This document shows positions 14,081-49,757 of a stretch of 61,498 bases of DNA, piece by piece. The DNA comes from an uncultured Methanosarcinales archaeon (GTDB taxonomy: Archaea > Nanobdellota > Nanobdellia > Woesearchaeales > ARS49): the NCBI GenBank assembly GCA_964360565.1, contig CAYHXI010000001.1, forward strand, positions 1 to 61,498. Direction: 5' to 3'. Numbering within the stretch: the first letter of the stretch is position 1; every line of letters starts with the position of its first letter. The notes under the pieces were generated by a model. It was not told where the DNA came from. It did not search any database and saw nothing but the letters and a program-made list of their open reading frames with translations. The position numbers were made by a program, and so were the translations under genes.

Positions 14081-14171
14081 AAAATAATAATTAAAGAATA
14101 AAGTATTTAAAATGTATGCTATATTAGAAAAGGACAAAAGTAACACATAAAATAGTTTGTCCTTTTCAATT

Positions 14172-16847: not shown

Positions 16848-17561
16848 ATGCTATCTATAATAATTCCAGTTTACAATGAGGAGCGTACTATTTTTGAGCT
16901 TTTAAATAAGGTGGAAAGTGTAGACTTGGCTGATATTAAAAAGCAAATAATTGTCGTAGATGATGGAAGTAAAGATAAAACATTTGAAGAGATACAACTA
17001 TTTTCACAACAAGCTAGAAAAAAATACAGTGAATTAATAATTTTAAAACACGAACAGAATCAAGGAAAAGGAAGTGCAATTAGAACTGGGTTGGAAAAAG
17101 TAACTGGAGAAATCGTGTTAATACAAGATGCAGATTTAGAATTAGACCCGAATGAATATTATTCTTTGATAGCACCAATCTTAAATAATTCTGCAGAGGT
17201 AGTGTACGGTTCAAGAATATTGAAAAAAGAGAATAGAACACGAGAAGGTGTTTCTCCATGGTTTTATGCAGGGGGAACTATGTTGACTCGATTTGCTAAC
17301 TTATTGTATGGGATAAATATCACTGACGAAGCAACATGCTATAAAGTTTTCAAAACGAATGTGATTAAATCTCTCGATTTAAAGTGCAAAAGATTCGAGT
17401 TCTGCCCTGAAGTTACTGCTAAATTAGCAAGAAGAAATATAAAAATACATGAAGTGCCAATAAGTTATTATCCGAGAAGCACTAAAGAAGGGAAAAAAGT
17501 TAGATTCAGAGATGGATTGATTGCTGCATGGACTTTAATAAAATATAAACTGATTGATTAA
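16848..17561 (+). CDS. GT2 glycosyltransferase, dolichyl/polyprenyl-phosphate sugar synthase-like
   Basis: SIIIPVYNE, VVDDGSKD, LIQDADLE and EVPISY motifs. Close paralog of 58435-59142. TATATAAA box at 16816-16823 lies 24 nt before the ATG. Confidence 0.85.
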   Translation: MLSIIIPVYNEERTIFELLNKVESVDLADIKKQIIVVDDGSKDKTFEEIQLFSQQARKKYSELIILKHEQNQGKGSAIRTGLEKVTGEIVLIQDADLELDPNEYYSLIAPILNNSAEVVYGSRILKKENRTREGVSPWFYAGGTMLTRFANLLYGINITDEATCYKVFKTNVIKSLDLKCKRFEFCPEVTAKLARRNIKIHEVPISYYPRSTKEGKKVRFRDGLIAAWTLIKYKLID

Positions 17562-20317: not shown

Positions 20318-21991
20318 TCAAGTTGGTATATTTACTAAGCAAAAATAACACTCTACTTTTAAATCATTTATGTTTGAGTATGTACTGTCGAATAAGTTAT
20401 CGTACTCGTCTACAGAAATATTTTGAACAGTTTGATTAGATTTTTTTGAGTATATGATTAATTTTATTACTTTGTTCTGTGTGATTTGTAGTGTTCTGTT
20501 GAAGCTTTTTTCAATATCTTTGAATGCACTAACATCTTGTTCTCTAATTACAACTAAATCTAAATTATCTTTTACTGTGTCAAAGAATTTTTTCTTTTGT
20601 TCATTTGTGCCGCTGTTAATGCTGTAAAATGAGATTCCATCATCAACTGGGTTTTTTCCAAAGTAGTATTTTGCTACTGGAGTTCCTATTGTGGTGAAAA
20701 TCTTGGTTGAATTATCTGTGTTTCTTCTAATCCAATATCCTGCACTCTTTATACCCCAATTATCTTTAACGTAGTCGCCATAGAAATAATCATTGCCAAA
20801 TACGCCTTTGTCATAATATATTGGGGCTAATGGTTTAAATGAGTTTAATTCATAGGTAGTGTAGACTGTGTGATTTAGCGTTGACAAAAAGAGTATTGCG
20901 ATTATTGCATATTTTATGAATTTAAAACGAATTCTCAATAACATGTCTGCAGTTAATATTATTAATGGAATTATTCCTGGAAGAAGATATGCTCTACTGT
21001 TAGTTCCTGAAGATATTACAAAAAACCAAGGAAGAATATATGAACAGAACCAAATTGTGAGAAATAGTCGATTTTTCTCCTTCTTTGAGAATATTGTTTG
21101 AAAAATTGAGAAAATAAACAGCAAAAAAAGGATAATTCCAACAGAGTATATTAGATAAAGAACTATTTCGCTGTGAAATCCAATTATTTTCGATTTTGCA
21201 AAGTTGTGCGCGATTATGCCTCCATCAATTTTACCTTTTATAAAATAAAAATAGAGAAAAGGAAGTAAAGCAGGTAAATATGTTATCAGAACTAATGAGA
21301 TAAATTTTAAATTTATTTTTGAAAAGAATCTTTTGATATTTTCTGAAGCAAAAAAAGAATTGGCGTGCTTATCATACTCATACCAATAAATTAAAAACAA
21401 AATAACTGGAAAAATAGATATGAATTGATTATCTGAAGATAAATAAATACCTAAGGATATTGGTGCCAAATATTTATATTTTTCATATTTAAGGTATTTT
21501 ATGAATAAAAATATGAAAAGTATCAGAAAAAATGTTGAAGTATTGGCAGCATTGTAAATAGTTCTTGACAAAGATACTGCAAGAGGAGTTATAGAAAATA
21601 TCAGCGAGGAAAGTATTGCAACACGATGATTGAATAGTTCTTTAGTTAGCAAATATATCAAAACACAAGTTAATATTCCGATAATTATTTGTGGAAAAAT
21701 TATCACAAACTCAGTGATTGGAACGTGAAATATGCTTGCAATAAAAATGGATAGTGCTGTTACCAGTAGTCTAACATATCCCCAGCCAAAACTTAAAAAT
21801 CTCAAAGCGGTTGTTTCTATTGAATGAGGGGATGCCTCGATATTGAATACATCTAGTGAAGCTAGTGCAACATAAGCATCATCTCCGCTTATAAATCCAG
21901 TTTCAGGATTAAATCTATAAATTCTCACAAATAAAGAAAGTAAAATTAGTATACCTATGAACAATCTTCTTGAATTAATTGAAGAAATCAT
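20318..21991 (-). CDS. GT-C-fold membrane glycosyltransferase (ArnT/PMT-like)
   Basis: 557 aa; acidic loop ISGDDAYVALASLD after TM1, more than 10 TM segments and a C-terminal soluble domain. Confidence 0.6.
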   Translation of the reverse strand: MISSINSRRLFIGILILLSLFVRIYRFNPETGFISGDDAYVALASLDVFNIEASPHSIETTALRFLSFGWGYVRLLVTALSIFIASIFHVPITEFVIIFPQIIIGILTCVLIYLLTKELFNHRVAILSSLIFSITPLAVSLSRTIYNAANTSTFFLILFIFLFIKYLKYEKYKYLAPISLGIYLSSDNQFISIFPVILFLIYWYEYDKHANSFFASENIKRFFSKINLKFISLVLITYLPALLPFLYFYFIKGKIDGGIIAHNFAKSKIIGFHSEIVLYLIYSVGIILFLLFIFSIFQTIFSKKEKNRLFLTIWFCSYILPWFFVISSGTNSRAYLLPGIIPLIILTADMLLRIRFKFIKYAIIAILFLSTLNHTVYTTYELNSFKPLAPIYYDKGVFGNDYFYGDYVKDNWGIKSAGYWIRRNTDNSTKIFTTIGTPVAKYYFGKNPVDDGISFYSINSGTNEQKKKFFDTVKDNLDLVVIREQDVSAFKDIEKSFNRTLQITQNKVIKLIIYSKKSNQTVQNISVDEYDNLFDSTYSNINDLKVECYFCLVNIPT

Positions 21992-22008
21992 CTGAAGTTC
22001 GTTGGAAT

Positions 22009-22761
22009 TTATTGAATTCCTCCTTTTGTTTCGAAAAATAATTTTATGAGATAAGTTCCCATGGAATAGCTATCTTTTAGTACTTTAACTGTGCTTTTTC
22101 TTCCAGCCACAAAATTTACTTTCGCAGGAATTTCTTTTATTTTGAAGCCTTGCAGATGTGATTTTATCAATATTTCGGTATCCCAAGACCAACCTTTGCT
22201 TTGTATGTTGGGTAACACTTTATCAATTATTTCTCGGTTAAAACACTTAAATCCGCACTGGTAATCTTTAATATTTATTTCTTTAAATAAAATACTCGCC
22301 AGATAAGAATAGCTTCTGCTTAAAAAACGTCTGGTTTTAGAATATGCAACTTCGGATTCCTTTAAATGTTTGGAGCCTATTACTATGTCGTAGCCTTCAG
22401 AAATGTATTTTTTCATTTCATTAAATAAGGTTATATCTATCGCCAGGTCTGCATCTATATATGCAATAATGTCTCCGTTAGCAGATTTGAACGCTTCTGT
22501 CAAAGCATTTCCTCTGCCCTTGTTAACTGAACTGGTGATTATTTGTATGTTTCTGTATTTTTCTTCATTCTTCTCTTTAAGTTGTTTAACAATTTCCAAA
22601 GAATTATCTTTGGAACCGTCATCAGAAAATATAATCTCAAAATTTTCTCCAAGACTTAAAAAATAATCATGGACTTGATTTATGGTATTTTCAATTATTT
22701 TTGCTTCATTAAATGCAGGGATAACTATAGAATATTCGACTCTGTTTGCCAGATTTATCAT
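22009..22761 (-). CDS. GT2 glycosyltransferase, polyprenyl-phosphate sugar synthase-like
   Basis: SIVIPAFNE, FSDDGSKD and YIDADLA motifs. TTTATAAA box at 22785-22792 lies 23 nt from the start. Confidence 0.8.
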   Translation of the reverse strand: MINLANRVEYSIVIPAFNEAKIIENTINQVHDYFLSLGENFEIIFSDDGSKDNSLEIVKQLKEKNEEKYRNIQIITSSVNKGRGNALTEAFKSANGDIIAYIDADLAIDITLFNEMKKYISEGYDIVIGSKHLKESEVAYSKTRRFLSRSYSYLASILFKEINIKDYQCGFKCFNREIIDKVLPNIQSKGWSWDTEILIKSHLQGFKIKEIPAKVNFVAGRKSTVKVLKDSYSMGTYLIKLFFETKGGIQ

Positions 22762-22826
22762 ATTCTCGCTGAAGAAGGCGTAAATTTATAAATATTGGGA
22801 ATTTTTATGTGATAATCAACAAATAG

Positions 22827-23726
22827 TTACTTTTTGTTCGTTATACTGAATTCAAGTGCCTTTTCTAATTTTGTTTGTTTTATTTTAAAGACAGTATTTA
22901 GTTTTTCAATATTATAAACCCTTGACTTATTCATGTTCTTTAATTGCACAATAATAGTCTCATCAATTAGTTTAATGAGGTTTAAAACATTTAAAAATAA
23001 TAATACTGGTGCTAGCCATATGTGTATGATTGATTTTTTTTGATTTTTTACACTTATACAAATTTTCAGAAATGCATTCATAGAGATGGCTTTATTCCCT
23101 GCCAGATCAAAAGTTCCAATGATATTATTTTGTATGGCTTTATCTAGGTATTTACATACATCTTTTACAAATATGGGTTGTAGTAAGTATTTACCACTGC
23201 CAGGTATTATTAGGATAGGCAGAGTATTAATCATACTATTAATTTTTTCTAGGAATCTCTCATTATTTTTTCCAAAAATAACCGTACATCGAAATATCGT
23301 GTGCGCATATATGGTTCTTACAAATTTCTCTGCATTAATTTTACTTTTGCCATAAAAATTATCATAAGAACAATAAACGTTATCTGTACTCATAAATATG
23401 ATTTTTGGAATATTCAGTAGTTTTGCGAGATAAACCGTGTTTCTTGTTGTTTGAATATTAGTGTGTAGACACAAATTATTTATTTTTGTATCTGCCGCCA
23501 AATGCAAAATGCAATCTATTTTTTCATTTAATTCTTCTGCTAATCTTTTAATAGATTCAATGGAGTCTATATCTGTGCGTATTATTCGAAAGTTTTTCAA
23601 TTTTAATAATTTAGGCTCTATTTTAGATGTCTTTCTAACTAGTAATATAAAATTATATTTATTTGAATACATATCTACGAAACACCTGCCAACGAAACCT
23701 GTGGCGCCTGTTACGATAATTCTCAT
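22827..23726 (-). CDS. NAD(P)-dependent epimerase/dehydratase-family SDR
   Basis: N-terminal Rossmann motif VTGATGFVG and a YxxxK context (FYGKSK). 4-nt overlap with the upstream radical SAM gene. Confidence 0.8.
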   Translation of the reverse strand: MRIIVTGATGFVGRCFVDMYSNKYNFILLVRKTSKIEPKLLKLKNFRIIRTDIDSIESIKRLAEELNEKIDCILHLAADTKINNLCLHTNIQTTRNTVYLAKLLNIPKIIFMSTDNVYCSYDNFYGKSKINAEKFVRTIYAHTIFRCTVIFGKNNERFLEKINSMINTLPILIIPGSGKYLLQPIFVKDVCKYLDKAIQNNIIGTFDLAGNKAISMNAFLKICISVKNQKKSIIHIWLAPVLLFLNVLNLIKLIDETIIVQLKNMNKSRVYNIEKLNTVFKIKQTKLEKALEFSITNKK

Positions 23727-25180
23727 GTTATTTTTTTTAATATTAATTTAAGAAAGTCGAGGAGTTGTCCTCTTTTAAATGCTCTTATAATATATTTTGG
23801 AGATAAATAGAACTTATTAAACGCTTCAGTCACTACTTTTTCTAAATATTCCTGAGTTAATTCATCTGAAATTTGCATTGTGGCAGTGTAGCCTCCAAAT
23901 TGATTATAATTCTCTGATTTTAACCATCCTTTCTCTTTAGCCATGTCGTGTAATTTTGTGCCAGGATATGGAGTTGCTATTTTGTATTCGACTTGACTGG
24001 GAAATAAGTCTCTGCTAAATTCAATAGTTTCTTTTATAGTTTCTCCGTTTGAACCAGGCAAACCTATTATGAAGAAGCAACTAGTTCTTATGCCTGAAAT
24101 TTCACAATAATTCACAATTCTCTTAAGATGATTTAAATCTATTGGCTTTCTATTAATTTGATTCAGAATGTCTTTGTGTATGTCTTCTACCCCGAAGTTT
24201 ATCGCGTGACAACCTGCTTTAGATAAAATATCAATCAATCCTTCAGTCAATAGTTCTGGCCTTGTTTCAATTACAAATTCTATTTTGAGTTGATTTTTAA
24301 TTATCAGATTGCATAATTCTTCTACCCTTTTTTGATTTAAAGAAAAAAGAGGGTCTCTAAAAACAAAACCTTTCACACTATATTTATCAACATCATATTT
24401 TAATTCATTAAATACATTTTCAGCACTTCGTGCACGCCATTTTAATCCTTGATTTTTAGTATACGGACAATATCCGCAATCGTAAGGACAACCTCTGGAA
24501 GATAGTATGCTTACAATTGGTTTAACATTTAACATGGGATAATATGAATATTTTTCGTAGGGAAATAAATCCCATTTAGGAAATGAAACTTTTTCTAGTT
24601 CATCTGCTTCAAGATGACTATTTAAATGATTTATTTTTATCTGGCCTGTATTTTGGTAAACTATTGCATCTATTTTGTCTAAGGGTTCTCCATTACATAT
24701 ACTCACTATGTTTCTTTCTACTTCACCTATTATGCCAATGTCAAAAAACGGCAACAGTTCTTTAGGTCGTTCAGTTATCATATCTCCTACACTTATAATC
24801 AGGCAATCGTTCAAATTATCCTTTATTTTTTTAGCAACCACATCTCTTTCGTATAAAAGACAACTTGAAGAAACTGCCATTATAATTAAATTTGGTTGAA
24901 ATTTATTTATTTCAGAAAGTGTAGCTTGAAGATCAATATTTTCATTTAGACTATCTATAACTTTAATATCAAATAATCCCGTTTTGTATAATATTGTGGC
25001 GCAATTAACTAGTTGTAAAACAGGCAATCTTACTGATGTGTTTTTAGCTTTTCTAATAATTTTCGTTAAAAACTTTTTGCCGAACGTATTATGAACGCCC
25101 ATGCCCCCCATGAGATCACGATTTATATAATCTGCATCAGGACTTGGAGGATTTAATATAATTATCTTTTTTTTATTCAT
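23723..25180 (-). CDS. B12-binding-domain radical SAM enzyme (class B)
   Basis: N-terminal Rossmann-like B12 domain (IIILNPPSP...), CxxxCxxC cluster motif SSRGCPYDCGYCPY, and ETRPELL and ATPYPGTK blocks. Confidence 0.85.
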   Translation of the reverse strand: MNKKKIIILNPPSPDADYINRDLMGGMGVHNTFGKKFLTKIIRKAKNTSVRLPVLQLVNCATILYKTGLFDIKVIDSLNENIDLQATLSEINKFQPNLIIMAVSSSCLLYERDVVAKKIKDNLNDCLIISVGDMITERPKELLPFFDIGIIGEVERNIVSICNGEPLDKIDAIVYQNTGQIKINHLNSHLEADELEKVSFPKWDLFPYEKYSYYPMLNVKPIVSILSSRGCPYDCGYCPYTKNQGLKWRARSAENVFNELKYDVDKYSVKGFVFRDPLFSLNQKRVEELCNLIIKNQLKIEFVIETRPELLTEGLIDILSKAGCHAINFGVEDIHKDILNQINRKPIDLNHLKRIVNYCEISGIRTSCFFIIGLPGSNGETIKETIEFSRDLFPSQVEYKIATPYPGTKLHDMAKEKGWLKSENYNQFGGYTATMQISDELTQEYLEKVVTEAFNKFYLSPKYIIRAFKRGQLLDFLKLILKKIT

Positions 25181-25186
25181 CTGGTT

Positions 25187-26740
25187 CTACGGGTGTGCGT
25201 GATTTTTAAAACTATTGTTAACTCGGTATATTGTTGTATTGTCTTTTTTATATACTTGTGTGATTAATTCTCGTTTCTCTTTAAGTGCGGGCGTAAGGAA
25301 AAGCTCACTGAATGAATTTACAGAGTCTTCTATTATCCAAGTAACGTTATAATTTATTATTGCTTTATGAACTTCAGTTGTGTTGTAAGTTAATGGAACT
25401 CCTATGCTCTTCAAGTTAGAATATAAATAATTTCCTTCAGGATATACTGTCATTACAATTTCATTTTTCTGAGCATTATTTTTAAGCCATAATACCACAT
25501 CAAGGTAAGATTTAGTATTATTATTGTTGGAGTTATTTTGCATTTTGACAAATTCGATAACTCCGAATGATGAGCTAATTAGACCTATACATAGCATAGA
25601 AATTATCATGATTTTTCCAATTCTCTTTCCAAATGATGCCGATAATCCAATAAAAATAAAATTGTAGAGTAATGGTAGCAATACAATCATGTAACGATCT
25701 GCTACTTCAAAATTCATTAGCATAAATATGTATGCTAAACAATAGGCAGCACCGTTAAAAACTTTTTCTTTTAAACTTTGTATTATTCCAATTAGAACTA
25801 ATAGAAAAATCAACAAGGATATTATTTTTTTCAAGAAGCTCAATCCAATGAAGTTAAAAACATTATTTAACACTTCATGATATTGGTAAAAAAATAAAGT
25901 GGGTACTGTGGACATTAATCTGAATGTATTTACTTTATATCTTTGTATTAATTTGTTTAAGCTAATAGAATTATCTATGTTTAATGTTTCTCCGTAAATA
26001 AAATATTCTTTATATGTGTGAATTAAACCCATATGATTGGGAAATTGATTCTTTGTTACGTTAGTTTGGGTGTAAATTGTAGGAATTATGTTGATGCTGA
26101 GAAATATAACCATAATTATGATAAGATTTAAGTTTGATTTGATAAATTTTTTTTTCTCTCTCGCATAACAAATGAGAAATAATAAAAATAATTCTGCTAA
26201 AAGAGTTATTCCTATGGACCTTGTTAGCGTGGCGAAAGAGAGAATCACTCCTGAAACTATGCTAACGTTTCTATTTGTTTTTGCATACTTAATTAATGCT
26301 ATGAACAAAATAGAAAAAAACATATATGGAATATCAGATAGTGGGCTGGTTGAGAGAGAAAGAAAGTAATAATTTAATGCTATATTTATCACAGTTAGAG
26401 TACGGATGTATACATTCCAGTCTTTTAAAAAAAACCAAGTTACTAAGAGTGTTAAACTACCAAAAAAAAGAACTAAAAGCCTGATAGCAATATGTTCAAA
26501 TTCAGGTACTATTAATAACACGATTGCCCATAGATAAGAAAAAAAAGGCGGATAAAAGATGTGTGGAGGATTATTTGGCAAGTATATATCAGTGGGAACT
26601 CCAAATTTGATAATTCCTCTAGCAACAGAAGCATAAACTCCACTGTCTGCTAGGAACACGTTTTGTTCATTCATCAAATTATATCCTAAGTAAATAAAAG
26701 AAAATACTAATACTGTGCTAAGAACAATACGACCAATCAT
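25187..26740 (-). CDS. GT-C-like polytopic membrane glycosyltransferase
   Basis: 517 aa with many TM segments and a C-terminal soluble domain. TTTATAAA box at 26763-26770 lies 22 nt from the start. Confidence 0.55.
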   Translation of the reverse strand: MIGRIVLSTVLVFSFIYLGYNLMNEQNVFLADSGVYASVARGIIKFGVPTDIYLPNNPPHIFYPPFFSYLWAIVLLIVPEFEHIAIRLLVLFFGSLTLLVTWFFLKDWNVYIRTLTVINIALNYYFLSLSTSPLSDIPYMFFSILFIALIKYAKTNRNVSIVSGVILSFATLTRSIGITLLAELFLLFLICYAREKKKFIKSNLNLIIIMVIFLSINIIPTIYTQTNVTKNQFPNHMGLIHTYKEYFIYGETLNIDNSISLNKLIQRYKVNTFRLMSTVPTLFFYQYHEVLNNVFNFIGLSFLKKIISLLIFLLVLIGIIQSLKEKVFNGAAYCLAYIFMLMNFEVADRYMIVLLPLLYNFIFIGLSASFGKRIGKIMIISMLCIGLISSSFGVIEFVKMQNNSNNNNTKSYLDVVLWLKNNAQKNEIVMTVYPEGNYLYSNLKSIGVPLTYNTTEVHKAIINYNVTWIIEDSVNSFSELFLTPALKEKRELITQVYKKDNTTIYRVNNSFKNHAHP

Positions 26741-26775
26741 CGTTTAATGTTTCAGCACAGGATTTATAAAATTTT

Positions 26776-28251
26776 CTAATTGCCTCTCAAATTGTGGTAC
26801 TTTCTCACTATTTTGTTTTTGATGATTTCTATTGCTTCGCGACATTCAAAAAAAGATTGTTTATCGAATAAGAAAGTAAAAGTGCATAATGAGATCGATG
26901 CTATGAACAATAAACAGAATAAATTAAATATGTTTATGTTACCGAATATGAGGTTCTTTAACAAAAGAAGAATAATTATGGTCATGCACGTTATTTTAAC
27001 TGTTGAAAAGAGAGTGCTAAAATATTCTTGCATACTTATTGATAGACTTTTTTTCACATATAGTGCAAAAATAATCGCAGAAGTTAATCTTGCAGATAAA
27101 ACTGCCAATAACACTCCATAAATGCCAAATAGATTTAATCCTGGGATAATGATTGCAATTAATATTAAAAATTCCAATAAAAATATTTTTTTTGTCACTT
27201 TTGGTTTTGATTTACTGAGAACTAGACAACTAGATATAATGCAAAAAGATCTCAATATTGCATATATTAGTAATATTCTTATAAGAAATATAATTGGCGC
27301 CCATTTTTGGGATAAAATTGTTCCAATGAGAGTGTCTGTCAGTGCTATTCCAATACCTGTGAGAGGTAATAATATCAAAAAATTCAAGTGTATTGTTTTT
27401 AGAAACATCATTTTTAGTTCTAAATTGTCTTTGGCTTTTGAGAATATTGGAAACATTGTTCCTGCTATTGAATGAGATATGGAAATGATTGGAATTGAAG
27501 CTAAAGAAAATGCCATGGTGTAAAATCCTAATTGTTCAACTCCTAAGAATTTCGCAACAAAAAGATTATCTACATACAAGATACTTATGCTAAACATGTT
27601 CCCTGCTGCGGTTTCTTTAACAAATATTAAAATGGATTTAAAAATTTTCCAGTCAAAAGTCAATGCAGGCATCCATCGAGTTGAGATTATAAAAGATGCT
27701 AAAAGCACTATGGATTGAATCAATTGCGCCAATAACAAACTCCAAACTCCAAAATCTAATTTAGCTAACGTGATTGCAAGTAAAGCAAAAATAACATTTG
27801 AGAAAATTTCACAAAAAGCTTTCTTTTTGAACAGAAGATTTTTTTGCATATATACTAAATATATTATTGTCGTTGCATAAATAATAAAACTGATTGAATA
27901 AATCTTCAGCAGTGAAGCGAGTTCTGGTTGATTTAAAAAAAAAGATATTTTATCTGCTCCCAAAAAAGAAGATATTGTTAGAACGACTGAAGAGATTAAA
28001 AAAACTACAGATATATTTCCTAAGGCTTTTTCTGAGTCTTGTTTTCTCTGAATTATTTCCTCTCCCCAGCCTAAGTTAAAAAATATGTTTATTATGTTGG
28101 TTATACTGAGTACTGCTGCCATAAGACCAAAGTATTGAGGTAATAATAATCTTGCCAAAATTAACTTAGTCAGTATTTGAATTATTTGGCTAAATGTGTT
28201 ACTTGTACTAGAATATACTATTCCCATCATTGCTATTTCTTTTAAGTTCAT
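26776..28251 (-). CDS. Wzx-like (MOP superfamily) oligo/polysaccharide flippase
   Basis: 491 aa, about 12-14 TM segments, typical polysaccharide-biosynthesis-protein architecture. Confidence 0.7.
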   Translation of the reverse strand: MNLKEIAMMGIVYSSTSNTFSQIIQILTKLILARLLLPQYFGLMAAVLSITNIINIFFNLGWGEEIIQRKQDSEKALGNISVVFLISSVVLTISSFLGADKISFFLNQPELASLLKIYSISFIIYATTIIYLVYMQKNLLFKKKAFCEIFSNVIFALLAITLAKLDFGVWSLLLAQLIQSIVLLASFIISTRWMPALTFDWKIFKSILIFVKETAAGNMFSISILYVDNLFVAKFLGVEQLGFYTMAFSLASIPIISISHSIAGTMFPIFSKAKDNLELKMMFLKTIHLNFLILLPLTGIGIALTDTLIGTILSQKWAPIIFLIRILLIYAILRSFCIISSCLVLSKSKPKVTKKIFLLEFLILIAIIIPGLNLFGIYGVLLAVLSARLTSAIIFALYVKKSLSISMQEYFSTLFSTVKITCMTIIILLLLKNLIFGNINIFNLFCLLFIASISLCTFTFLFDKQSFFECREAIEIIKNKIVRKYHNLRGN

Positions 28252-28400
28252 TTTTTAACTCCCACTAATAACAATTTCTCACTGTATTTTGGAAAGATAA
28301 TATCTTCTTTTTTTTTATTTTTTTGCCAGTTCAAATTGCCAGTAATACTTTGCGTATTGAAATCTACTTTGATACCAGTGATAAGGTCCAGAATACTTGT

Positions 28401-29534
28401 TTATTTTTTCCATTTTGAGTATATATTGATGAAATCTTTTACTGCTCTTTCTGGATTGAATATTTGAATATTATTTAATACATCTTTTATGTTTATTCTT
28501 TCTTTGTGATGAATGGCTTTGACTATTCTTTCTGCCAGTTCTTCAGCAGTATTAAAAACTTGCTCACTTTTAACAAATTCTTTGATTCCACCATTGTTGT
28601 TTACAAATACTTTGCATCCTGCACATAATGCTTCTTGAACACTCAAAGCAGATGGTTCCGGCCACAATGGAGATGCGACAAAGATGTTTGCCTTTTTGTA
28701 TTCATGCATTGTTTCTTTGTGTGTTTTTGGACCGAGAAAAATAACTTTTTTTGTCAAATCAAATATTTTTATCAAATCATCTATTCTTTTCTTATCTGAA
28801 TCGTTTTTATTTTGGTTACTTCCAACAATTTTCAACTTTATTTCTGGCAATGTTTTAGTCACTATATTTACTGTGTTTATCAGTAAATCTATTCCCTTGT
28901 AACGAGCCAGTGAACCAACAAATAAAATTGTTTGTTTTTCTCTTACGTTTCCCTTTTGCTCTAATTCACTCACATCAATCCAAGGGAGGATTTTCATCCA
29001 TTTATTATTGAGAATTGAATTTTTCTCATATTGTTTGATAACGAATTCACTTGGCGCGATTCCAATATCACATTTATTTAAATGATGTTTATTTCTCAAC
29101 GAATTAATGTATGAAATTAAACCTATGCAGCATGAACATTTTAATAAATTAGGTCCTTTACATGGTTTTTTGTCTTTGAATAATTTATTTCTTCTTCCGC
29201 AAAAGCCCCAATAATCGTGAGCGCTAAAGATTATTGGCTTATTTAATTTCTTTGCAGCCATAATCGGTCTAACCGATATAGCCACAAGATTATGAACTTG
29301 AACGATATCAATGTGGTTTCTTGTTATTATATGTTTAGTTATCTTTCCAGAATTCTTAGTATTACATTTATGTATTGTTAATCCATCTGAATTGGGAGAA
29401 TTTGCACTATCGTGCTCAAGTAGATGTATTTTTTCAAAATATCTTTTTCTTAATAATTCTTCTATTAAGAGCTTTATTCTAACTTCCGCACCCCCTCCAA
29501 TAATTCCAGAATCGTTTACGACTAGAAGGTTCAT
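28401..29534 (-). CDS. GT4-family glycosyltransferase
   Basis: GT-B layout; N-terminal GGAEV and C-terminal PEPSALSVQEALCAGCKVFV signature. TATA-like box 29558-29565. Confidence 0.8.
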   Translation of the reverse strand: MNLLVVNDSGIIGGGAEVRIKLLIEELLRKRYFEKIHLLEHDSANSPNSDGLTIHKCNTKNSGKITKHIITRNHIDIVQVHNLVAISVRPIMAAKKLNKPIIFSAHDYWGFCGRRNKLFKDKKPCKGPNLLKCSCCIGLISYINSLRNKHHLNKCDIGIAPSEFVIKQYEKNSILNNKWMKILPWIDVSELEQKGNVREKQTILFVGSLARYKGIDLLINTVNIVTKTLPEIKLKIVGSNQNKNDSDKKRIDDLIKIFDLTKKVIFLGPKTHKETMHEYKKANIFVASPLWPEPSALSVQEALCAGCKVFVNNNGGIKEFVKSEQVFNTAEELAERIVKAIHHKERINIKDVLNNIQIFNPERAVKDFINIYSKWKK

Positions 29535-29576
29535 TTTTTAAATATACTGTGTGCCCCTTTAAAAACCTTGGTGCGC

Positions 29577-31310
29577 TCAGCAAGAAAATATTTGTATTTC
29601 TCCATGTTCATAATTCACTTCTTTTGTCAGATTGCAATTTTGTTTTATCATATTTATTTTTTCTTTATTTACAGGATTCATATCTATAACATATTTTTGT
29701 GGATAATTCAGTAGAATTACAGTTCCGCCATATTTCTTTATTGCCTTTTCTATTTCAGAAATATCTGAATCTAAATCATAATATCCATTTTCATCAGAAC
29801 CTAGCTCTTTGGCATAATTTTTTTCGCGCTCATCAATCACGTTTATGTTAAGAAGCGCTTTTCCAGAATATTTGCTCACATAAAAAGGAATGTCTTCATT
29901 CCAACTATATGTGGGTAATTTTATGTAATTATCTTTTGCATAATTTTCAACCACATTAATGAGTTGTCTGTGAGTATTATCTAAAACTGTGGAAAATAAT
30001 AAAAAAGAATTGAATGAAACTGAAAACAATAAAAAAAGAAGAAAGAATATTTTTTTTTGTTTCACTAAAAAAGAAACGAAAAACAATGCAGATAATATCA
30101 AATAAAATAGCATTATTTTTTGATTTAAAGCTATTATTGGCCCTGAGGCACTTAAATAATACCAGAATGTATCGCTGCTAAGATTTAATAGTGCTGAAAT
30201 ATATCCTATTGTAATGCTAATTGCGCTTACTGATAAAACTGAAGTCAAACTAATATTTACCTCTTTTATTGTTTTAGATGCCACAACTAAAATAGGTATG
30301 AAAATAATTGAGTAATATCTTGCGTAATCTGCAGCCGATTGATGTGGGAGTAAAACAAACAATACAATTAAAAGAAATAGCCAAGGCAACATCCATTTTT
30401 CATTTGAGCTAATGAATTCTTTTAATAACTTGAGGAAATTCAACTGATTCCCTGTTTTAATTTTTATGGCTGAGAACAAGTTGATAATATATAAAATAAG
30501 CGTTCCTACAAATAGTGGTGTTAAAACAACAAAAAGATTGATATAAATTATCGGATTAAATTTTGAGAGAGAAATAAACGAAGGAGACGAATGAAATAGT
30601 ATTTCTTGAGCTGAGTAAATGAATGCTCTGCCTTGAATGTAATAATTTGTTAGCGCCCAAGCAGAGAAAACAAATAAGGAAGTTAGAATAGTCTTGATGA
30701 GCATAACAATGGTTTTTCGAAAATCTTTGCAATAAAAGTAAAACCAGAATGAGAGTGGTAATATAAAAATTAAGAATCTGAACTTGGTCATGACTCCTGC
30801 TGCAAAAAGAAGATAAACTAAAAATTCATTTATTTTAGTTGATTTAGAATTCTTTGGAGTATTAGTGAGATTTAATAGCAGATAAAGTATGCTTAGAATA
30901 AAAAAAACCATTACTGAACCATCGCTATCAACTAAAAAACTCATAAATGCAGGGATAAATGTGATTGAAAATAATACTGTGAAAATTCGATTTATTTTTT
31001 TGTCATTATATATTTTATTCACTATTGCTAATGCTAAGAAAAATATTGTGATGTTAAATATTAATGGGACGAGTCTTAAAGAAAAAGTAGAAATACCTAA
31101 AAAATAGGTACTCATTAAAAAAAATAAAGTGGTTAGTGGAGGATGAGGAATTACTATGAGATTGTTTCCCAGCGAATCATAGTATTTTGCTGAAATACCA
31201 ATGAGTGCACTGTCATCATAAAGAGGAATGAATAAATAGCTTATTCTGAAAATAAGCCCAATTGCTATTAAAGTAAACAAAAGAAGATTAACTGATGTTA
31301 TTTTTTTCAT
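29577..31310 (-). CDS. GT-C-fold membrane glycosyltransferase (ArnT/PMT-like)
   Basis: 577 aa; LYDDSALIG acidic loop after TM1, more than 10 TM segments and a C-terminal soluble domain. Confidence 0.6.
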   Translation of the reverse strand: MKKITSVNLLLFTLIAIGLIFRISYLFIPLYDDSALIGISAKYYDSLGNNLIVIPHPPLTTLFFLMSTYFLGISTFSLRLVPLIFNITIFFLALAIVNKIYNDKKINRIFTVLFSITFIPAFMSFLVDSDGSVMVFFILSILYLLLNLTNTPKNSKSTKINEFLVYLLFAAGVMTKFRFLIFILPLSFWFYFYCKDFRKTIVMLIKTILTSLFVFSAWALTNYYIQGRAFIYSAQEILFHSSPSFISLSKFNPIIYINLFVVLTPLFVGTLILYIINLFSAIKIKTGNQLNFLKLLKEFISSNEKWMLPWLFLLIVLFVLLPHQSAADYARYYSIIFIPILVVASKTIKEVNISLTSVLSVSAISITIGYISALLNLSSDTFWYYLSASGPIIALNQKIMLFYLILSALFFVSFLVKQKKIFFLLFLLFSVSFNSFLLFSTVLDNTHRQLINVVENYAKDNYIKLPTYSWNEDIPFYVSKYSGKALLNINVIDEREKNYAKELGSDENGYYDLDSDISEIEKAIKKYGGTVILLNYPQKYVIDMNPVNKEKINMIKQNCNLTKEVNYEHGEIQIFSC

Positions 31311-31337
31311 TTTAGATGTTGTAAATTAACAAAAATG

Positions 31338-31345
31338 TTTATAAA
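31338..31345. promoter_or_regulatory. single palindromic TATA box (TTTATAAA) between divergent genes
   Basis: 27 nt from the minus-strand start at 31310 and 23 nt from the plus-strand ATG at 31369. Confidence 0.5.
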
Positions 31346-31368
31346 CGTTATGATTTGACGGTCTGTGG

Positions 31369-32094
31369 ATGAAATTATCAATTATAATACCTGCATATAA
31401 TGAAGAAAGAAGTATAAAAAGAATTATACAAAATACTCACAAAATCTTATTGGATTTCTTTGACAAACCAGAAGAGTTTGAAATAGTTGTGATGAACGAT
31501 GGTTCAAAAGATAATACTTTGACGTATTGTGAAGAGTCACAAAAAGAAATAAAAAATCTCAGCATATTTTCTAATCCTATCAATTTTGGAAAGACTTTGA
31601 ATCTCATCAGAGGTTTTGATATTGCCAAAGGAGATTATGTTGGATTTATAGATGCAGATTATCAGTATGATCCTATAGATATTCCTAAATTGTTTGAAAA
31701 AACAAAAGAAGGATACGACATAGTTTGTGGTAATAGAAGTTTGAGAAAAGATTCAATATACCGGAAATTTCTTAGCTTTGGCTTTAATTCATTCAACAGA
31801 TATTTTTTTGGAATTAAAGTTCATGACGTAAATTGTGGACTTAAAATAATAAAGAAAACTTCTTTGCCAAAAATACAAATAAAATACTTGAGAGCAAAAT
31901 GGTTCATAGATACTGAGTTTTTAGTTAGAGCATACGAAAAAAAACTCAAAATAACTGAGCTTCCAATAAATCATTATGATAGACTTGAAGGAGTTTCTAA
32001 AGTCAGTGGTGTTAAACTCGCATTAGAGACTGTATTTTATGGAGTTATGCTTAAGACAGAGCTATTAATTCAAAGAATAAAGAATATATTCTAA
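31369..32094 (+). CDS. GT2 glycosyltransferase, polyprenyl-phosphate sugar synthase-like
   Basis: SIIIPAYNE, MNDGSKD and FIDADYQ motifs. TTTATAAA box at 31338-31345 lies 23 nt before the ATG. Confidence 0.8.
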   Translation: MKLSIIIPAYNEERSIKRIIQNTHKILLDFFDKPEEFEIVVMNDGSKDNTLTYCEESQKEIKNLSIFSNPINFGKTLNLIRGFDIAKGDYVGFIDADYQYDPIDIPKLFEKTKEGYDIVCGNRSLRKDSIYRKFLSFGFNSFNRYFFGIKVHDVNCGLKIIKKTSLPKIQIKYLRAKWFIDTEFLVRAYEKKLKITELPINHYDRLEGVSKVSGVKLALETVFYGVMLKTELLIQRIKNIF

Positions 32095-32099
32095 AAAAA

Positions 32100-32972
32100 A
32101 TGAAAAAAATCTTAGTAACTGGAGGCACGGGCTTCATAGGTGAAAAAGTTGTTGAATTACTTTCTAAAAATAATCTAGTTTTCGTGCTAACCAGAAATCA
32201 TGATTTTAAAGATAGTAAAAATGTCAAATATATTTATGGCGACATTTGCAACGAACAAAAAATCAAAGAAATAGTAATTGGAAAAGACATCATAATTCAC
32301 ATGAGCGGGTCAATAAAAGGTTCTGATGAAGAAATATTCAAAACAAACATAGTTGGAACTGAGAATTTAATTAATGCTTGTAAAAATATAAACATTGAGA
32401 ATTTTGTTTTTATTAGCAGCGATGCTGTTTTTCAGAAGCACAGAAGTGGGTATTCTGAGAGTAAAGTTAAAGGAGAAGAAATAATCAAAAAAATAAAAAA
32501 TCATTGTATTTTAAGACCTGCCATTGTCTATGGTGAAGGAGATAAGATAAATCTTGGTAAAATAATTAACTTTGTTAAAAAATGGCCAGTCATAATTATT
32601 CCTGGTAATGGAAATAATAAAATGCAGCCAATATGTGTGGAGGATGTTGCAAAATATATTTCTATTGCTGCAACATCAAACATTCAAGGAGTTTATACTC
32701 TCGCTGGCTCAGATATTTTGACTTTCAATACTTTTATGGATGAAGCATGTTTAGTGTTGAATAAAAAATTACTAAAAATACATCTTCCTTTATTTTTCAT
32801 AATTCCTTTTGTTTGGCTTGTTGAAAAACTATTCCCTAATTTAGGCGTGAGTATTTCTCAAGTAAAAAATTTGAATTCTGATAGAGTTTATGACATTTCC
32901 GAAACAATAAAAACATTCAAACATGAGCCAATAAAAATAAAAGAAGGATTAAAGAGAACCATAGTACATTAA
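32100..32972 (+). CDS. NAD(P)-dependent epimerase/dehydratase-family SDR
   Basis: VTGGTGFIG Rossmann motif and YSESK. Alignable by eye with 22827-23726. Confidence 0.8.
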   Translation: MKKILVTGGTGFIGEKVVELLSKNNLVFVLTRNHDFKDSKNVKYIYGDICNEQKIKEIVIGKDIIIHMSGSIKGSDEEIFKTNIVGTENLINACKNINIENFVFISSDAVFQKHRSGYSESKVKGEEIIKKIKNHCILRPAIVYGEGDKINLGKIINFVKKWPVIIIPGNGNNKMQPICVEDVAKYISIAATSNIQGVYTLAGSDILTFNTFMDEACLVLNKKLLKIHLPLFFIIPFVWLVEKLFPNLGVSISQVKNLNSDRVYDISETIKTFKHEPIKIKEGLKRTIVH

Positions 32973-34444
32973 AGTTTGGTGTTTTGTCTTTTCTCTCTCG
33001 CAATTTCGAATCCGAACTTTGCCAAAATTTTTGCTTTTGAAAACCAGTTGCCTTTTCTAATCTCTCTGAAAAAGTAAGATGGTCGATAATAAAAGTTTTT
33101 GAATGCGAGAGAGCTTTGTTCTTCAAGATATTTTGGAGTTAATTCGTCATTTATTTGCATAACTGAATAATATCCTCCCAATTTATCATAATTTTCTTCA
33201 ATTATCCATTTGTTTTCTAAAGCGCTTTTGTACATTTTCGTTCCAGGATAAGGAGTTGCTACTTTGTATTCTGCATGACTAGGATTTAATTTCAAACTAA
33301 AATCAATAGTCTTTTTCAGAGTTTCTCTAGTCGAGCCTGGAAGACCCAATATAAAGAAGCAGGTTGTTCTTATACCTATTTTTTCTAAATAATTAACTGT
33401 CTTTTTTATAATGTCAGTATTTATAGGTATTCTAACGTTTTTCAGCACTTCCACATTCACATCTTCAATTCCCATATTTATAGCGGAACATCCCGCGAGT
33501 TTAAGTTTATCCATTAATTCTTCATCCAATAATTCAGGTCTAGTTTCTAATGCAAAATCAAGTTTAATTCCTCGCGCAATCATCAAATCACATATTTTCA
33601 TCGTTCTTTGTTTGTCTAGTGTAAACAGTGGGTCTCTGAAAAAAACACCTTTAAAGCCATATTTCTCATAATCTAAAGCCAGTTCTTCTACAACATTTTC
33701 CGGCGAACGCGCTCTCCATTTCAATCCTTGATTCTCAGTGTAAGAACAATAATGACAACCATAAGGACACCCTCTTGTTGAAATCAATGTTGCAACAGGT
33801 TCTTTTAGAATCAGTGGATAATATCTGTATTTTTTATAAGGAAACAAATCCCATTTTGGAAAAGGTAGCGCATCTAAATCTGTTCCAATTAAAAAAGGAG
33901 TATTTGAATTTGTAACTAATTTTCCTTCTTTAACATAAGATATTCCTGCAATATCTTTTAAGTCTTTATTTCTGCATATCTCTAAGAGACATTTCTCCAC
34001 CTCTCCACTTATGCAAATATCAAAAGGAGGTGAAATCAAATGAGGCATATACGGTAATGTTTCTCCAACAGTTATTATCTTACAATTTGGAACTATTTTC
34101 TTAATTCCTGCAGCAACAACATCTTTCTCAAACAAAATTCCTGAAGAAGAAACGGGCATCACTAAAAAATCAGGGTTGAAAAGAGATATTTCTTTAAATG
34201 TGACTGCAAGATTTTTTCCTTCATTCATAGAATCTATTACTTTTACTTCATGCTCTTGACTAGCAATTGTTGCAGCATAAACCAATTGAGTCACTGGAAT
34301 CCTTATAAACTTACTTTTAAAATCACTCAAAAGTTTTGCAAAAAGATCTTTACCAAAATTAATTCTCTGTCCCATACCTCCCATCTGATCCCTATTCAAA
34401 TAATTATTATCAGAAGCGGGTGGATTTAGCACTAAAACTCTCAT
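32969..34444 (-). CDS. B12-binding-domain radical SAM enzyme (class B), paralog of 23723-25180
   Basis: STRGCPYGCHYCSY cluster motif. Shared blocks FPKWDLFPY, NQGLKWRARS, ETRPELL and ATPYPGTK. TATA-like box 34468-34475. Confidence 0.85.
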   Translation of the reverse strand: MRVLVLNPPASDNNYLNRDQMGGMGQRINFGKDLFAKLLSDFKSKFIRIPVTQLVYAATIASQEHEVKVIDSMNEGKNLAVTFKEISLFNPDFLVMPVSSSGILFEKDVVAAGIKKIVPNCKIITVGETLPYMPHLISPPFDICISGEVEKCLLEICRNKDLKDIAGISYVKEGKLVTNSNTPFLIGTDLDALPFPKWDLFPYKKYRYYPLILKEPVATLISTRGCPYGCHYCSYTENQGLKWRARSPENVVEELALDYEKYGFKGVFFRDPLFTLDKQRTMKICDLMIARGIKLDFALETRPELLDEELMDKLKLAGCSAINMGIEDVNVEVLKNVRIPINTDIIKKTVNYLEKIGIRTTCFFILGLPGSTRETLKKTIDFSLKLNPSHAEYKVATPYPGTKMYKSALENKWIIEENYDKLGGYYSVMQINDELTPKYLEEQSSLAFKNFYYRPSYFFREIRKGNWFSKAKILAKFGFEIAREKRQNTKL

Positions 34445-48497: not shown

Positions 48498-49757
48498 ATG
48501 GTTTTAATATTTTTTATAAATCCCTCTGATGTTTTTTTGGAAAAAAAAGGAGACAGACCTCCTTTAGGATTGATGTACTTGAGTAGTTATATTAAACAAT
48601 TTAACTATACTGCTAAAATATGGGATTTGAATCACGATTCTCAGCAAGAATTAGAAAAAAACATTATTTCTGAAAACCCCGAGTTTTTATGCTTCAGCAT
48701 AGCAGTAACTAGCTATAGATGGTCTGTAGATTTTATTAAAAAAATAAGAAAATCAGGTTATTCTGGAAAAATTATTGGAGGCGGAAATCACATAACTAAC
48801 ATAGCTAATGATTCAGAACCTCAACAATATTTTGATTTTTTAGTTATTGGTGATGGTGAACTCGCTTTAAAAGATATTTTAGAAAATAAAGCAACAAATA
48901 AAATTATTAGAAGTCCTGATATCGAAGATATAAATTTGTTGCCATTTCCAGATTATGCTGGGATAGATATGGACAGATATACGATGACTGTTGAGGGCAA
49001 AAAAGGAGCTCAACTGGTTTCTAGCAGAGGGTGCGTTTTTTCATGTGTTTATTGCGGTTCTGCAAAAATCAAGAAAGTTAGGCAAAGAAGTCCTAAAAAT
49101 GTACTTGAGGAAATGAACTTGTTGTATGATAAATATCAAATTAGAGGATTCTATTTTGGGGATGATATTTTTACTCTTAATTTTAAAAGAACGATTGAAT
49201 TATGTCAACTGATTAAGGAAAATTTAGCAGGAGTTGTTTTTAGAGTGACAACTAGATCAGATTTATTAAATTATGAGGTTTGCAAAGCTTTGAAAGATGC
49301 GGGATGTTCAATTGTTTGTATTGGTTTTGAAAGCGGAAATAACACAATTCTTAAAAATATAAATAAGGGAGAGACTATTGAGCGTCAACGTAAGGGTGTT
49401 GAATTATGTCATAACCTTGGACTAAAGGTTAAAGGGTTTTTTATCATTGGTTTACCTGGCGAAACACGTCAAACTGCTATGGAAACAATACAATTTGCCA
49501 AAAGTTTGAATCTTGCTTATGCGGATTGTTATCCGATAACTCCATATCCTGGAACTCCTTTGTGGGATAACCCTGAAAAATATGGTTTAGAAATAATTAA
49601 ACCTATTGATGGCAATTGGGACGAATATTATCAAGTAGGCATTAAAGGAGCGAAACACGAGATAAAATTAAAGCACAACAATTTGTCGCAAGAAGAGATA
49701 ATAGAATTTGTTGAATTATTTAATAAAGAAGTATGCAGAAAAGGATTAACATACTGA
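48498..49757 (+). CDS. B12-binding-domain radical SAM enzyme (class B)
   Basis: SSRGCVFSCVYCGS cluster motif and an N-terminal Rossmann-like domain. TTTATAAA box at 48464-48471. Confidence 0.8.
   Translation: MVLIFFINPSDVFLEKKGDRPPLGLMYLSSYIKQFNYTAKIWDLNHDSQQELEKNIISENPEFLCFSIAVTSYRWSVDFIKKIRKSGYSGKIIGGGNHITNIANDSEPQQYFDFLVIGDGELALKDILENKATNKIIRSPDIEDINLLPFPDYAGIDMDRYTMTVEGKKGAQLVSSRGCVFSCVYCGSAKIKKVRQRSPKNVLEEMNLLYDKYQIRGFYFGDDIFTLNFKRTIELCQLIKENLAGVVFRVTTRSDLLNYEVCKALKDAGCSIVCIGFESGNNTILKNINKGETIERQRKGVELCHNLGLKVKGFFIIGLPGETRQTAMETIQFAKSLNLAYADCYPITPYPGTPLWDNPEKYGLEIIKPIDGNWDEYYQVGIKGAKHEIKLKHNNLSQEEIIEFVELFNKEVCRKGLTY

Follow-up and report, generated by a model that had tools for sequence, protein, structure and literature searches.

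The locus described here raises the question of why four gene families occur together twice on one archaeal contig, and of what their products would do to a sugar. The stretch analyzed (the window) comprises 61.5 kb of a contig from a Nanoarchaeota (DPANN) metagenome-assembled genome (MAG), and an identical fragment is known from a Hainich groundwater metagenome. Each of the two sets, named copy A (20318-25180) and copy B (29577-34444), contains genes for a radical S-adenosylmethionine (SAM) protein (rSAM), a short-chain dehydrogenase/reductase (SDR), a family 2 glycosyltransferase (GT2), and a large membrane glycosyltransferase of the GT-C type. In public records these genes bear only general names ("radical SAM protein", "NAD(P)-dependent oxidoreductase", "hypothetical protein"). 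The answer proposed in this paper, put forward tentatively and with somewhat less than even confidence, is that the sets are two ancient paralogous modules of one conserved DPANN extracytoplasmic glycosylation system, in which a lipid-linked sugar would be deoxygenated by the rSAM and the SDR before its transfer by a GT-C enzyme. This proposal is derived from sequence and predicted structure.

Paralogy and conserved linkage of the two gene sets

All eight open reading frames named in the initial annotation of the window were recovered with exactly the coordinates and strands given there. As it had claimed, the two rSAMs align end to end, with 48% identity over 478 amino acids (aa) (E = 6e-170 in a pairwise comparison), and all four motifs that it had quoted for them are present. 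The GT2s and the SDRs also pair up as reciprocal best matches within the window. GT2 A and GT2 B share 31% identity (E = 9e-33) and score 107 bits, compared to 76 bits for the third DPM1-like GT2 of the window (GT2 C). SDR A and SDR B likewise share 31% identity (E = 4e-42), and neither matches another SDR in the window. The pairing of GT-C A with GT-C B was not borne out, as BLASTP gave only E = 0.1 and no pairwise similarity was seen.

The two sets had been described as a duplication, and this description holds for the existence of paralogous sets and fails for any recent event. No DNA-level repeat between copies A and B was found in the window. Many foreign proteins are 50-59% identical to rSAM A, whereas rSAM B is only 48% identical to it. 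In a neighbor-joining tree, rSAM A is grouped with A-type orthologs from other loci (L001, L003, L008, L088-L090, L094, and L099, where L-numbers are labels of the retrieved homologous loci), and rSAM B is grouped with B-type orthologs (L091, L093, L095-L098, and L100). The two rSAM copies are therefore not each other's closest relatives, since each has closer orthologs elsewhere. Because no DNA repeat links the copies, the word duplicated is to be understood as ancient paralogy. Recent tandem duplication was considered and rejected, given the absent repeats together with the closer orthologs of each copy.

The orthologs of the B copy also travel together. At the B-type loci, GT2 B orthologs score 254-264 bits (L091, L095-L097) and SDR B orthologs 150-256 bits, and the order GT2-SDR-rSAM is kept with a PMT_2 protein directly adjacent. 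Since subtype-specific orthologs recur in fixed order, it can be concluded that the two sets are ancient paralogous modules, each of which was inherited as a unit.

Conservation of the full set was evaluated in 147 retrieved loci, which were scanned with the window proteins and a transmembrane (TM) filter; a flank of at least 3 kb on both sides was required for the count of close orthologs. Among loci with close rSAM orthologs (at least 480 bits), an SDR, a GT2, and a large TM protein were found together in 6 of 7, compared to 1 of 42 loci with distant B12-binding rSAM (B12-rSAM) paralogs (below 200 bits). These controls are remote paralogs, mostly of 24-33% identity, taken from the contig scan. 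Mid-range relatives (200-260 bits) have a directly adjacent SDR in 12 of 41 loci and a directly adjacent DPM1-like GT2 in 7 of 41. A PMT_2 gene directly adjoins the rSAM gene in every A-type and B-type locus with flank. Pfam-annotated neighborhoods around homologs of 33-59% identity (L001, L003, L006, and L007) contain GT2, SDR, rSAM, and PMT_2 genes, often with more than one rSAM. The co-occurrence of the four families, which the initial annotation had noted in the window, is thus kept across DPANN and some other lineages. The presence of the genes, their family assignments, the paralogy of the sets, and the conserved linkage are established.

Modules with all four families are typical of DPANN and of a few further lineages. 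One related clade has the rSAM and SDR genes as a pair in glycan clusters that contain no nearby GT-C gene, which identifies these two as the invariant core. Relatives of the rSAMs with 28-33% identity were also found in bacterial MAGs of Omnitrophota (L015), Gemmatimonadota (L011 and L012), and Deltaproteobacteria (L014). An SDR of the same type (129 bits) is adjacent in the Omnitrophota locus, and an archaeal locus (L063) carries the full set of GT2, rSAM, SDR, and PMT_2. The module, or its rSAM-SDR core pair, appears to cross the domain boundary.

The encoded enzymes and the proposed deoxygenation

Both rSAMs belong to the radical SAM superfamily, with Radical_SAM (PF04055) scores of 85 and 94 bits in Pfam, a canonical CxxxCxxC motif, and cluster cysteines (C231/C235/C238) that are invariant in their family. 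The family also has its own N-terminal motif, NPPSPD..Y.NRDLMGGMG. The top NCBIfam match is HpnJ (TIGR03471) over residues 65-468, at 192.9 bits for rSAM A and 196.0 bits for rSAM B against a cutoff of 577.6. The AprD4 model (NF033070) is matched over residues ~190-450 only, at 154.2 and 148.0 bits against a cutoff of 500, and the BchE model at 133 and 145 bits against a cutoff of 481. All of these scores are far under the cutoffs, and assignment of the rSAMs as HpnJ, AprD4, or BchE equivalogs was rejected. HpnJ is also the top NCBIfam match of the other, unrelated B12-rSAMs of the window; therefore, the HpnJ match of the rSAMs is generic. No hopanoid genes (shc, hpnH, hpnI, and hpnK) were found in the 61.5-kb window or the related loci.

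The best relative of the rSAM by sequence in the PDB is AprD4 (6FD2; E = 9e-35, 23% identity). An AlphaFold2 (AF2) model of the rSAM (pLDDT 94.5, pTM 0.93) also gave AprD4 as the first-ranked Foldseek match (E = 3e-31), with TM-scores of 0.79-0.85 over ~490 columns at full length. The model superposes on 6FD2 in the N-terminal Rossmann-like domain, the rSAM barrel, and the C-terminal extension, and the family-invariant core residues are nearly all common to AprD4. Cobalamin-dependent rSAMs (MgmA, TsrM, CysS, OxsB, and TokK) gave TM-scores of only 0.56-0.70 with the same model. AprD4 dehydrates a 1,2-diol of a sugar and depends on the NADPH reductase AprD3 for completion of apramycin C3' deoxygenation (PMC5461906; PMC7941887). 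It has the same Rossmann-like domain and does not bind cobalamin, though it is placed in the B12-rSAM similarity network (PMC12931638).

The initial annotation had labeled the rSAMs as B12-binding enzymes of class B, a label that is unproven. No match to the B12-binding domain PF02310 was found by hmmscan in rSAM A or rSAM B at E <= 0.01, and their best match, AprD4, does not bind cobalamin. The same domain is recorded in precomputed annotations for many or most of the rSAM homologs, and two other rSAMs of the window (48498-49757 and 49777-51285) match it above threshold. Judged by sequence, the rSAMs form a distinct and unnamed family of roughly 90 clusters above 40% identity, a separate clade lying outside any family of known unrelated function. 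Of the three outcomes that the initial annotation had named as speaking against the module, placement inside such a family among them, none was observed.

The partner SDRs carry the sequence signature of NADP(H) use. A GxxGxxG motif, an S..YxxxK motif, and an Arg at the end of beta2 are present in all 23 rSAM-adjacent SDRs whose N-terminus is present. An Arg at this position of SDRs indicates NADP(H) use, whereas GalE-type epimerases have an Asp there and retain NAD. A hydrophobic segment lies at about residues 233-251 of SDR A and 224-242 of SDR B. Such a hydrophobic 19-mer (KD >= 1.6) at about residues 225-250 was found in 8 of 22 SDRs from modules linked to GT2 and GT-C. Among 27 other SDRs at these loci, one has it (p = 6e-6), and it is missing from the short SDRs found in the clade without GT-C. 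Membrane-facing or lipid-facing proteins (NDUFA9 and NSDHL) are included among the nearest solved SDR relatives.

For the GT2s, the comparisons point to lipid-phosphate sugar synthases. Among solved structures, the seven closest to GT2 B are all ArnC (7e-23), GtrB (5e-18), or dolichyl-phosphate mannose synthase (DPMS) of P. furiosus (8e-16), and the top NCBIfam matches of the GT2s are PgfS, ArnC, AglJ, PpgS, and dolichyl-phosphate (Dol-P) hexose transferase, all under equivalog cutoffs. By sequence, then, their catalytic domains are closest to characterized synthases of this kind. The reasoning of the initial annotation that a GT2 and a GT-C would cooperate holds, since ArnC, GtrB, and DPMS are all polyprenyl-phosphate sugar synthases. 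In other A-type modules, the GT2 adjoining the SDR-rSAM pair is most similar to GT2 C (178-237 bits; L001, L003, L007, L093, and L103) and less so to GT2 A.

The membrane proteins were harder to classify. Local phmmer searches with them found almost nothing, and iterative profiles worked; as such profiles of TM proteins may drift, early rounds were checked and members were confirmed by Pfam. GT-C A matches PMT_2 (PF13231) at 50.8 bits (cutoff 26.1), and hydropathy predicts ~10 TM segments and a C-terminal soluble domain, with a GDD motif after TM1. GT-C B has no Pfam or NCBIfam match, and a word-based search of 5.8e9 proteins returned only itself. Its nearest relative among the retrieved loci (L092:507-2207, 185 bits) itself matches PMT_2 at 65.7 bits against 26.1, and membrane proteins adjoining the B-type rSAMs in four loci (L091, L093, L096, and L098) match PMT_2 as well, two of them just under the cutoff. 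About 12 TM segments are seen in GT-C B; the first of them is followed by a YDD motif, and HPPL is present as well. Its single-sequence AF2 model reached a pLDDT of 46, and hhalign against the profile of the 517-aa family described next gave a probability of 27.7%. GT-C B can therefore be assigned to the PMT_2-type GT-Cs by transitive homology only.

A further 517-aa membrane protein (25187-26740) has ~9 TM segments and a C-terminal domain and no direct Pfam match. It has 686 relatives, and PMT_2 is found in 33 of the 40 sampled (best 3.5e-14); the family profile also matches yeast Pmt1 (6P25, E = 2.3e-4). On these two grounds it is regarded as a third GT-C. In addition, the MOP flippase encoded beside it may transport either the lipid-linked donor or the glycan. 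With GT2, MOP flippase, and GT-C genes in one co-directional array, the gene set of a three-component glycosylation system is present, and the substrate of the flippase is putative.

From these assignments we infer a chemistry, a substrate, and an acceptor for the system. A short DPM1/ArnC/GtrB-like GT2 would load a hexose from a nucleotide sugar onto dolichyl (polyprenyl) phosphate. The AprD4-like rSAM, judging from its closest relative by sequence and fold, would then dehydrate a sugar radical to give a keto-deoxy sugar. By analogy with AprD3, the membrane-associated SDR of NADP(H) type would reduce the ketone, giving a dolichyl-phosphate deoxyhexose. The MOP-family flippase of the same array would export this donor, and the PMT_2-type GT-Cs, three of which are encoded in the region, would pass the modified sugar on to acceptors at the cell surface, be they glycans, proteins, or lipids. 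The most likely chemistry by analogy is dehydration plus reduction as in AprD4/AprD3, that is, deoxygenation, which is favored because the NADP(H)-type SDR partner is obligatory. Of the chemistries suggested in the initial annotation, GenK-type methylation and calditol-type contraction are possible and less favored than deoxygenation, which was not on its list.

Several observations weigh against this proposal. The control loci used for the neighborhood comparison are unmatched for glycan-cluster context, although the co-inheritance of subtype-specific orthologs in fixed order is independent of that control. Since the rSAM-SDR pair of one related clade is found in glycan clusters with no GT-C close by, the pair may not need a lipid-linked substrate. 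No TM segments were predicted in GT2 A, B, or C (241-250 aa, compared to 322-374 aa for the solved relatives), so the window GT2s are without the C-terminal TM hairpin of ArnC and GtrB; human DPM1 is also without a TM helix. The chemistry is argued from comparison of sequences and folds, in which the rSAMs score far under the AprD4 cutoff (154/148 bits against 500) and slightly higher on HpnJ (193/196), for which catalysis of ring contraction has been proposed, and fold comparison cannot separate these chemistries because HpnJ and Cds are without solved structures. Finally, a cobalamin-dependent reaction is feasible, because PF02310 is carried by many homologs and the genes of the organism include those for a corrinoid adenosyltransferase and for an adenosylcobalamin (AdoCbl)-dependent ribonucleotide reductase (RNR).

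Other explanations of the same gene set can be weighed on this evidence. A somewhat unlikely one retains the architecture and replaces the chemistry, either by cobalamin-dependent C-methylation as in GenK and MoeK5, or by oxidation of a carbinol to a ketone followed by SDR reduction. In the latter variant, an anaerobic analog of epimerization by DprE1/DprE2, the SDR would reduce the ketone from the other face. PF02310 in most homologs supports such chemistry, as do the CobA/BtuR and AdoCbl RNR genes of the window, which imply that corrinoids are used; HpnJ, Fom3, and MoeK5 cluster together in similarity networks (PMC9204698), and DprE1/E2 are a precedent for oxidation plus reduction on a lipid-linked sugar. 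A ketone-reducing SDR would fit epimerization, but a simple SDR can epimerize alone, as proposed for ORF13, and methylation leaves the obligatory SDR partner unexplained. Moreover, hmmscan gave no B12 domain in either window rSAM, their modeled fold is nearer to cobalamin-free AprD4 than to any cobalamin enzyme, and the cluster already has two bona fide B12-rSAMs and a nucleoside diphosphate (NDP)-hexose C-methyltransferase. It is unlikely that the rSAM and SDR act on a soluble nucleotide sugar or a non-lipid glycoside, as DesII does on a TDP-sugar, with the GT2 and GT-C as mere neighbors. This would agree with the position of the module inside a glycan supercluster that extends over at least 44 kb and encodes many NDP-sugar enzymes, with the unmatched glycan context of the controls, and with the related clade in which the pair has neither a GT-C next to it nor a strong DPM1-like GT2. 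It is opposed by the co-inheritance of subtype-specific GT2 and SDR orthologs in fixed order and by the PMT_2 gene directly adjoining the rSAM gene. The hydrophobic SDR segment is likewise seen in modules linked to GT2 and GT-C and missing in the unlinked clade, and the nearest characterized rSAMs (AprD4, HpnJ, and Cds) all act on glycosides rather than NDP-sugars.

Ring contraction as in HpnJ and Cds is a quite improbable explanation. Here the GT2 would glycosylate a membrane lipid and the rSAM would convert the sugar to a cyclopentyl (calditol-like or cyclitol-like) ether head group, which would mean that scavenged host lipids are remodeled in a DPANN cell. HpnJ is the best NCBIfam match (193-196 bits, residues 65-468), and the substrates of both HpnJ and Cds are lipid-linked hexoses that glycosyltransferases have formed (PMC13459092). 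However, the score is one third of the HpnJ cutoff of 577.6 and the match is generic, the GT2s resemble polyprenyl-phosphate sugar synthases and not HpnI, and the proposed mechanism is redox-neutral, so that the SDR would be unneeded (PMC13459092). On chemical grounds, a carbocyclic product without an anomeric leaving group could not serve as a GT-C donor. That common families merely lie side by side by chance in a crowded glycan locus, forming no functional module, has a probability close to negligible and is already largely refuted by the comparative data. The GT2, SDR, and rSAM families each have very many members, and at least five GT2-domain genes and five rSAM genes lie in the window; the full set is nevertheless present at 6 of the 7 close orthologous loci, compared to 1 of 42 controls. 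Gene order is conserved, the SDR and rSAM genes overlap by 4 nt in both window copies, and other assemblies show the association again in relatives with as little as 33-39% identity.

If the lipid-linked sugar is indeed tailored in this way, an AprD4-type dehydratase and an NADPH reductase would remodel a dolichyl-phosphate hexose at the membrane, by deoxygenation or by another radical reaction, and this may be the first radical SAM enzyme acting on a polyprenyl-phosphate-linked sugar, a possibility to which slightly less than an even chance is given. Such a route would supply GT-Cs with a new non-Leloir donor and would lead to unusual surface sugars by bypassing nucleotide-sugar tailoring; DPANN archaea would have kept and multiplied it, and some ultra-small bacteria would have it too. 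It would also provide a testable function for a conserved, unannotated rSAM family and its SDR partner. AprD4, so far an isolated aminoglycoside enzyme, would gain a large family in primary metabolism. The N-terminal motif NRD[LQ]MGGM with an adjacent NADP-type SDR could then serve as a marker for unusual deoxy or branched sugars in uncultured microbes.

Gene layout and the surrounding glycan cluster

The layout is more complex than the two separate four-gene cassettes of the initial annotation (Table 1). GT-C B heads the same minus-strand array that contains cassette A, and this array also holds the third GT-C, which the initial annotation had missed, and the MOP flippase. The eight genes run from 31310 to 20318 in the order GT-C B, GT4, MOP/Wzx-type flippase, 517-aa membrane protein, rSAM A, SDR A, GT2 A, and GT-C A, with gaps of 42, 149, 35, 6, -4, 65, and 17 nt. 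GT2 B and SDR B diverge from the array, with a 58-nt gap between GT-C B and GT2 B. rSAM B is convergent with SDR B and co-directional with genes for a GT9 (34512-35618) and a methyltransferase (35615-36421). In each copy, the SDR gene and the rSAM gene share 4 nt.

Table 1. Genes of the two sets and associated features in the window
Feature	Position	Strand	Assignment and remarks
GT-C A, 557 aa	20318..21991	-	PMT_2 2.8e-13; last gene of minus-strand array
GT2 A, 250 aa	22009..22761	-	Glycos_transf_2 2.3e-32; DPM1/ArnC/GtrB-like
SDR A, extended SDR	22827..23726	-	Epimerase/3Beta_HSD; overlaps rSAM A by 4 nt
rSAM A, 485 aa	23723..25180	-	Radical_SAM 7.9e-24; AprD4/HpnJ-like, N-terminal Rossmann-like domain
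Third GT-C, 517 aa	25187..26740	-	Relatives match PMT_2; 6 nt upstream of rSAM A
MOP/Wzx-type flippase, 11 TM	26776..28251	-	Polysacc_synt_3 3.2e-58
GT4 glycosyltransferase	28401..29534	-	Glycos_transf_1 7.1e-26; context gene in array
GT-C B, 577 aa, fast-evolving	29577..31310	-	Transitive PMT_2 homology; first gene of array
GT2 B, 241 aa	31369..32094	+	Glycos_transf_2 6.4e-33
SDR B, extended SDR	32100..32972	+	Epimerase/3Beta_HSD; NADP(H)-type signature
rSAM B, 491 aa	32969..34444	-	Radical_SAM; paralog of rSAM A
GT2 C, third DPM1/AglJ-like GT2	16848..17561	+	Beside Wzy_C protein, 5 kb from cassette A
Distant related rSAM	48498..49757	+	PF02310 49.9 bits vs cutoff 32.1; module membership uncertain

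The module is embedded in a glycan supercluster that covers ~9.5-54 kb of the window. It includes a WecA/AglH-type initiating transferase, a carbamoyltransferase, several GT4, GT2, and GT9 enzymes, a Wzy_C protein, and two MOP flippases. GDP-mannose dehydratase, DegT aminotransferase, NDP-hexose C-methyltransferase, and three further radical SAM genes are also found. One of these, an rSAM-SPASM gene (46405-47382), overlaps a GFO/IDH/MocA oxidoreductase gene (47379-48401) whose best NCBIfam match, under the cutoff, is UDP-GlcNAc 3-dehydrogenase; L001 and L006 likewise have rSAM-SPASM genes (~345 aa) close to the module. Both remaining genes encode B12-binding rSAMs (48498-49757 and 49777-51285), giving five rSAM genes in one glycan cluster. 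The protein encoded at 48498-49757 is 30-32% identical to rSAM A and B. A second rSAM with a B12 domain (150-200 bits to rSAM A/B) was found in L001 (12148-13530), L003 (14974-16410), L006 (3473-4804), L007 (3634-5025), and L096 (3925-5343), often beside a GT2 or PMT_2 gene. The 48498-49757 gene is the probable counterpart of this second rSAM that accompanies the module elsewhere, and the presence of such an rSAM in many genomes points to either another module type or a further step of radical tailoring.

Genes for a CobA/BtuR corrinoid adenosyltransferase (1399-2010), an ATP-cone RNR (2129-4333), and an NrdR-like repressor (4354-4896) adjoin one another near the start of the window. A close relative of the RNR is named adenosylcobalamin-dependent by NCBI. 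Because CobA/BtuR adjoins an AdoCbl-type RNR, this DPANN archaeon, in spite of its reduced genome, uses and adenosylates corrinoids.

Four membrane proteins without Pfam matches are also encoded inside the glycan cluster, namely at 54042-56378 (minus strand, 778 aa, ~12 TM), 19386-20282 (plus strand, 298 aa, ~7 TM), 18925-19389 (plus strand, 154 aa, ~3 TM), and 15111-16475 (minus strand, 454 aa). For the 454-aa protein there is a weak match to the putative glycosyltransferase family LA_3751/LA_3752, and the GT-C profile reached it only at the fourth iteration. A PterinBD-DUF4346 protein (13715-14146, minus strand, 4.8e-24) is also encoded in the cluster, between a GT4 gene and a DUF4330 protein. 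Two GT9 (heptosyltransferase-family) genes, at 34512-35618 and 42679-43650, are present on this archaeal contig; the GT9 family is best known from synthesis of the bacterial lipopolysaccharide core. Scans of the window for tRNAs and Rfam families gave no matches. DPANN genomes are minimal, yet this contig invests heavily in surface glycans, with its five radical SAM genes in a single cluster. Cell-surface chemistry is probably central to host attachment of DPANN episymbionts.

Comparison with known systems

The module is similar to three-component systems (GtrA/GtrB/GtrC, ArnC/ArnT, PPPRS/MATE/GT136 with auxiliary epimerases, and DprE1/E2 with GT-C arabinosyltransferases) in that a lipid-phosphate sugar synthase, a flippase, and a GT-C are encoded together. 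It differs in its radical SAM enzyme, its MOP/Wzx-type flippase, the several GT-Cs per module, the DPANN host, and GT2s devoid of the TM hairpin. Tailoring of a lipid-linked donor before GT-C transfer has been shown for DprE1/E2 and proposed for the SDR ORF13 (PMC11127046). The idea that the sugar is remodeled before transfer, advanced in the initial annotation, is therefore not new in itself, and its radical SAM version is undescribed. Radical enzymes are unmentioned in that account of three-component systems (PMC11127046), and a literature search returned no description of a radical SAM enzyme inside such a glycosylation system, nor of this module, in keeping with the remark in the initial annotation that it knew of no described four-family module of this kind. 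If the proposed deoxygenation is correct, the GtrB/GT-C and DprE paradigm of a tailored lipid-linked donor extends to radical chemistry.

The Pgf system of Streptococcus mutans is related through its GT2, as PgfS is the best NCBIfam match of both GT2 A and GT2 B. The Pgf locus consists of this GT2, an SDR-family epimerase (PgfE), and two large membrane proteins (PgfM1/PgfM2). It contains no radical SAM enzyme, and PgfE is a GalE-type NDP-sugar epimerase, whereas the SDRs of the present module have an NADP(H)-reductase signature. The HpnI/HpnK/HpnJ pathway to the hopanoid cyclitol ether and the Cds pathway use a member of this broad rSAM clade whose substrate is a lipid hexose attached by a glycosyltransferase. 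The hopanoid or calditol context of those pathways is missing here, and the SDR and GT-C of the module are absent from them.

The closest likeness in chemistry would be to AprD4 and AprD3. Differences are evident in the 23% identity, in scores far under the NF033070 cutoff, and in the N-terminal motif specific to the present family; the setting is also an archaeal surface-glycan locus with GT2 and GT-C here, compared to aminoglycoside synthesis in actinomycetes. Nevertheless, the core motifs CxxxCxxC, FRDP, ETR, GxE, and TPYPGT are shared, and the substrate of AprD4 is the sugar ring of a glycoside. The obligatory NAD(P)H reductase of that pair is mirrored in the module by a tightly coupled SDR of NADP(H) type, a likeness that is drawn from function.

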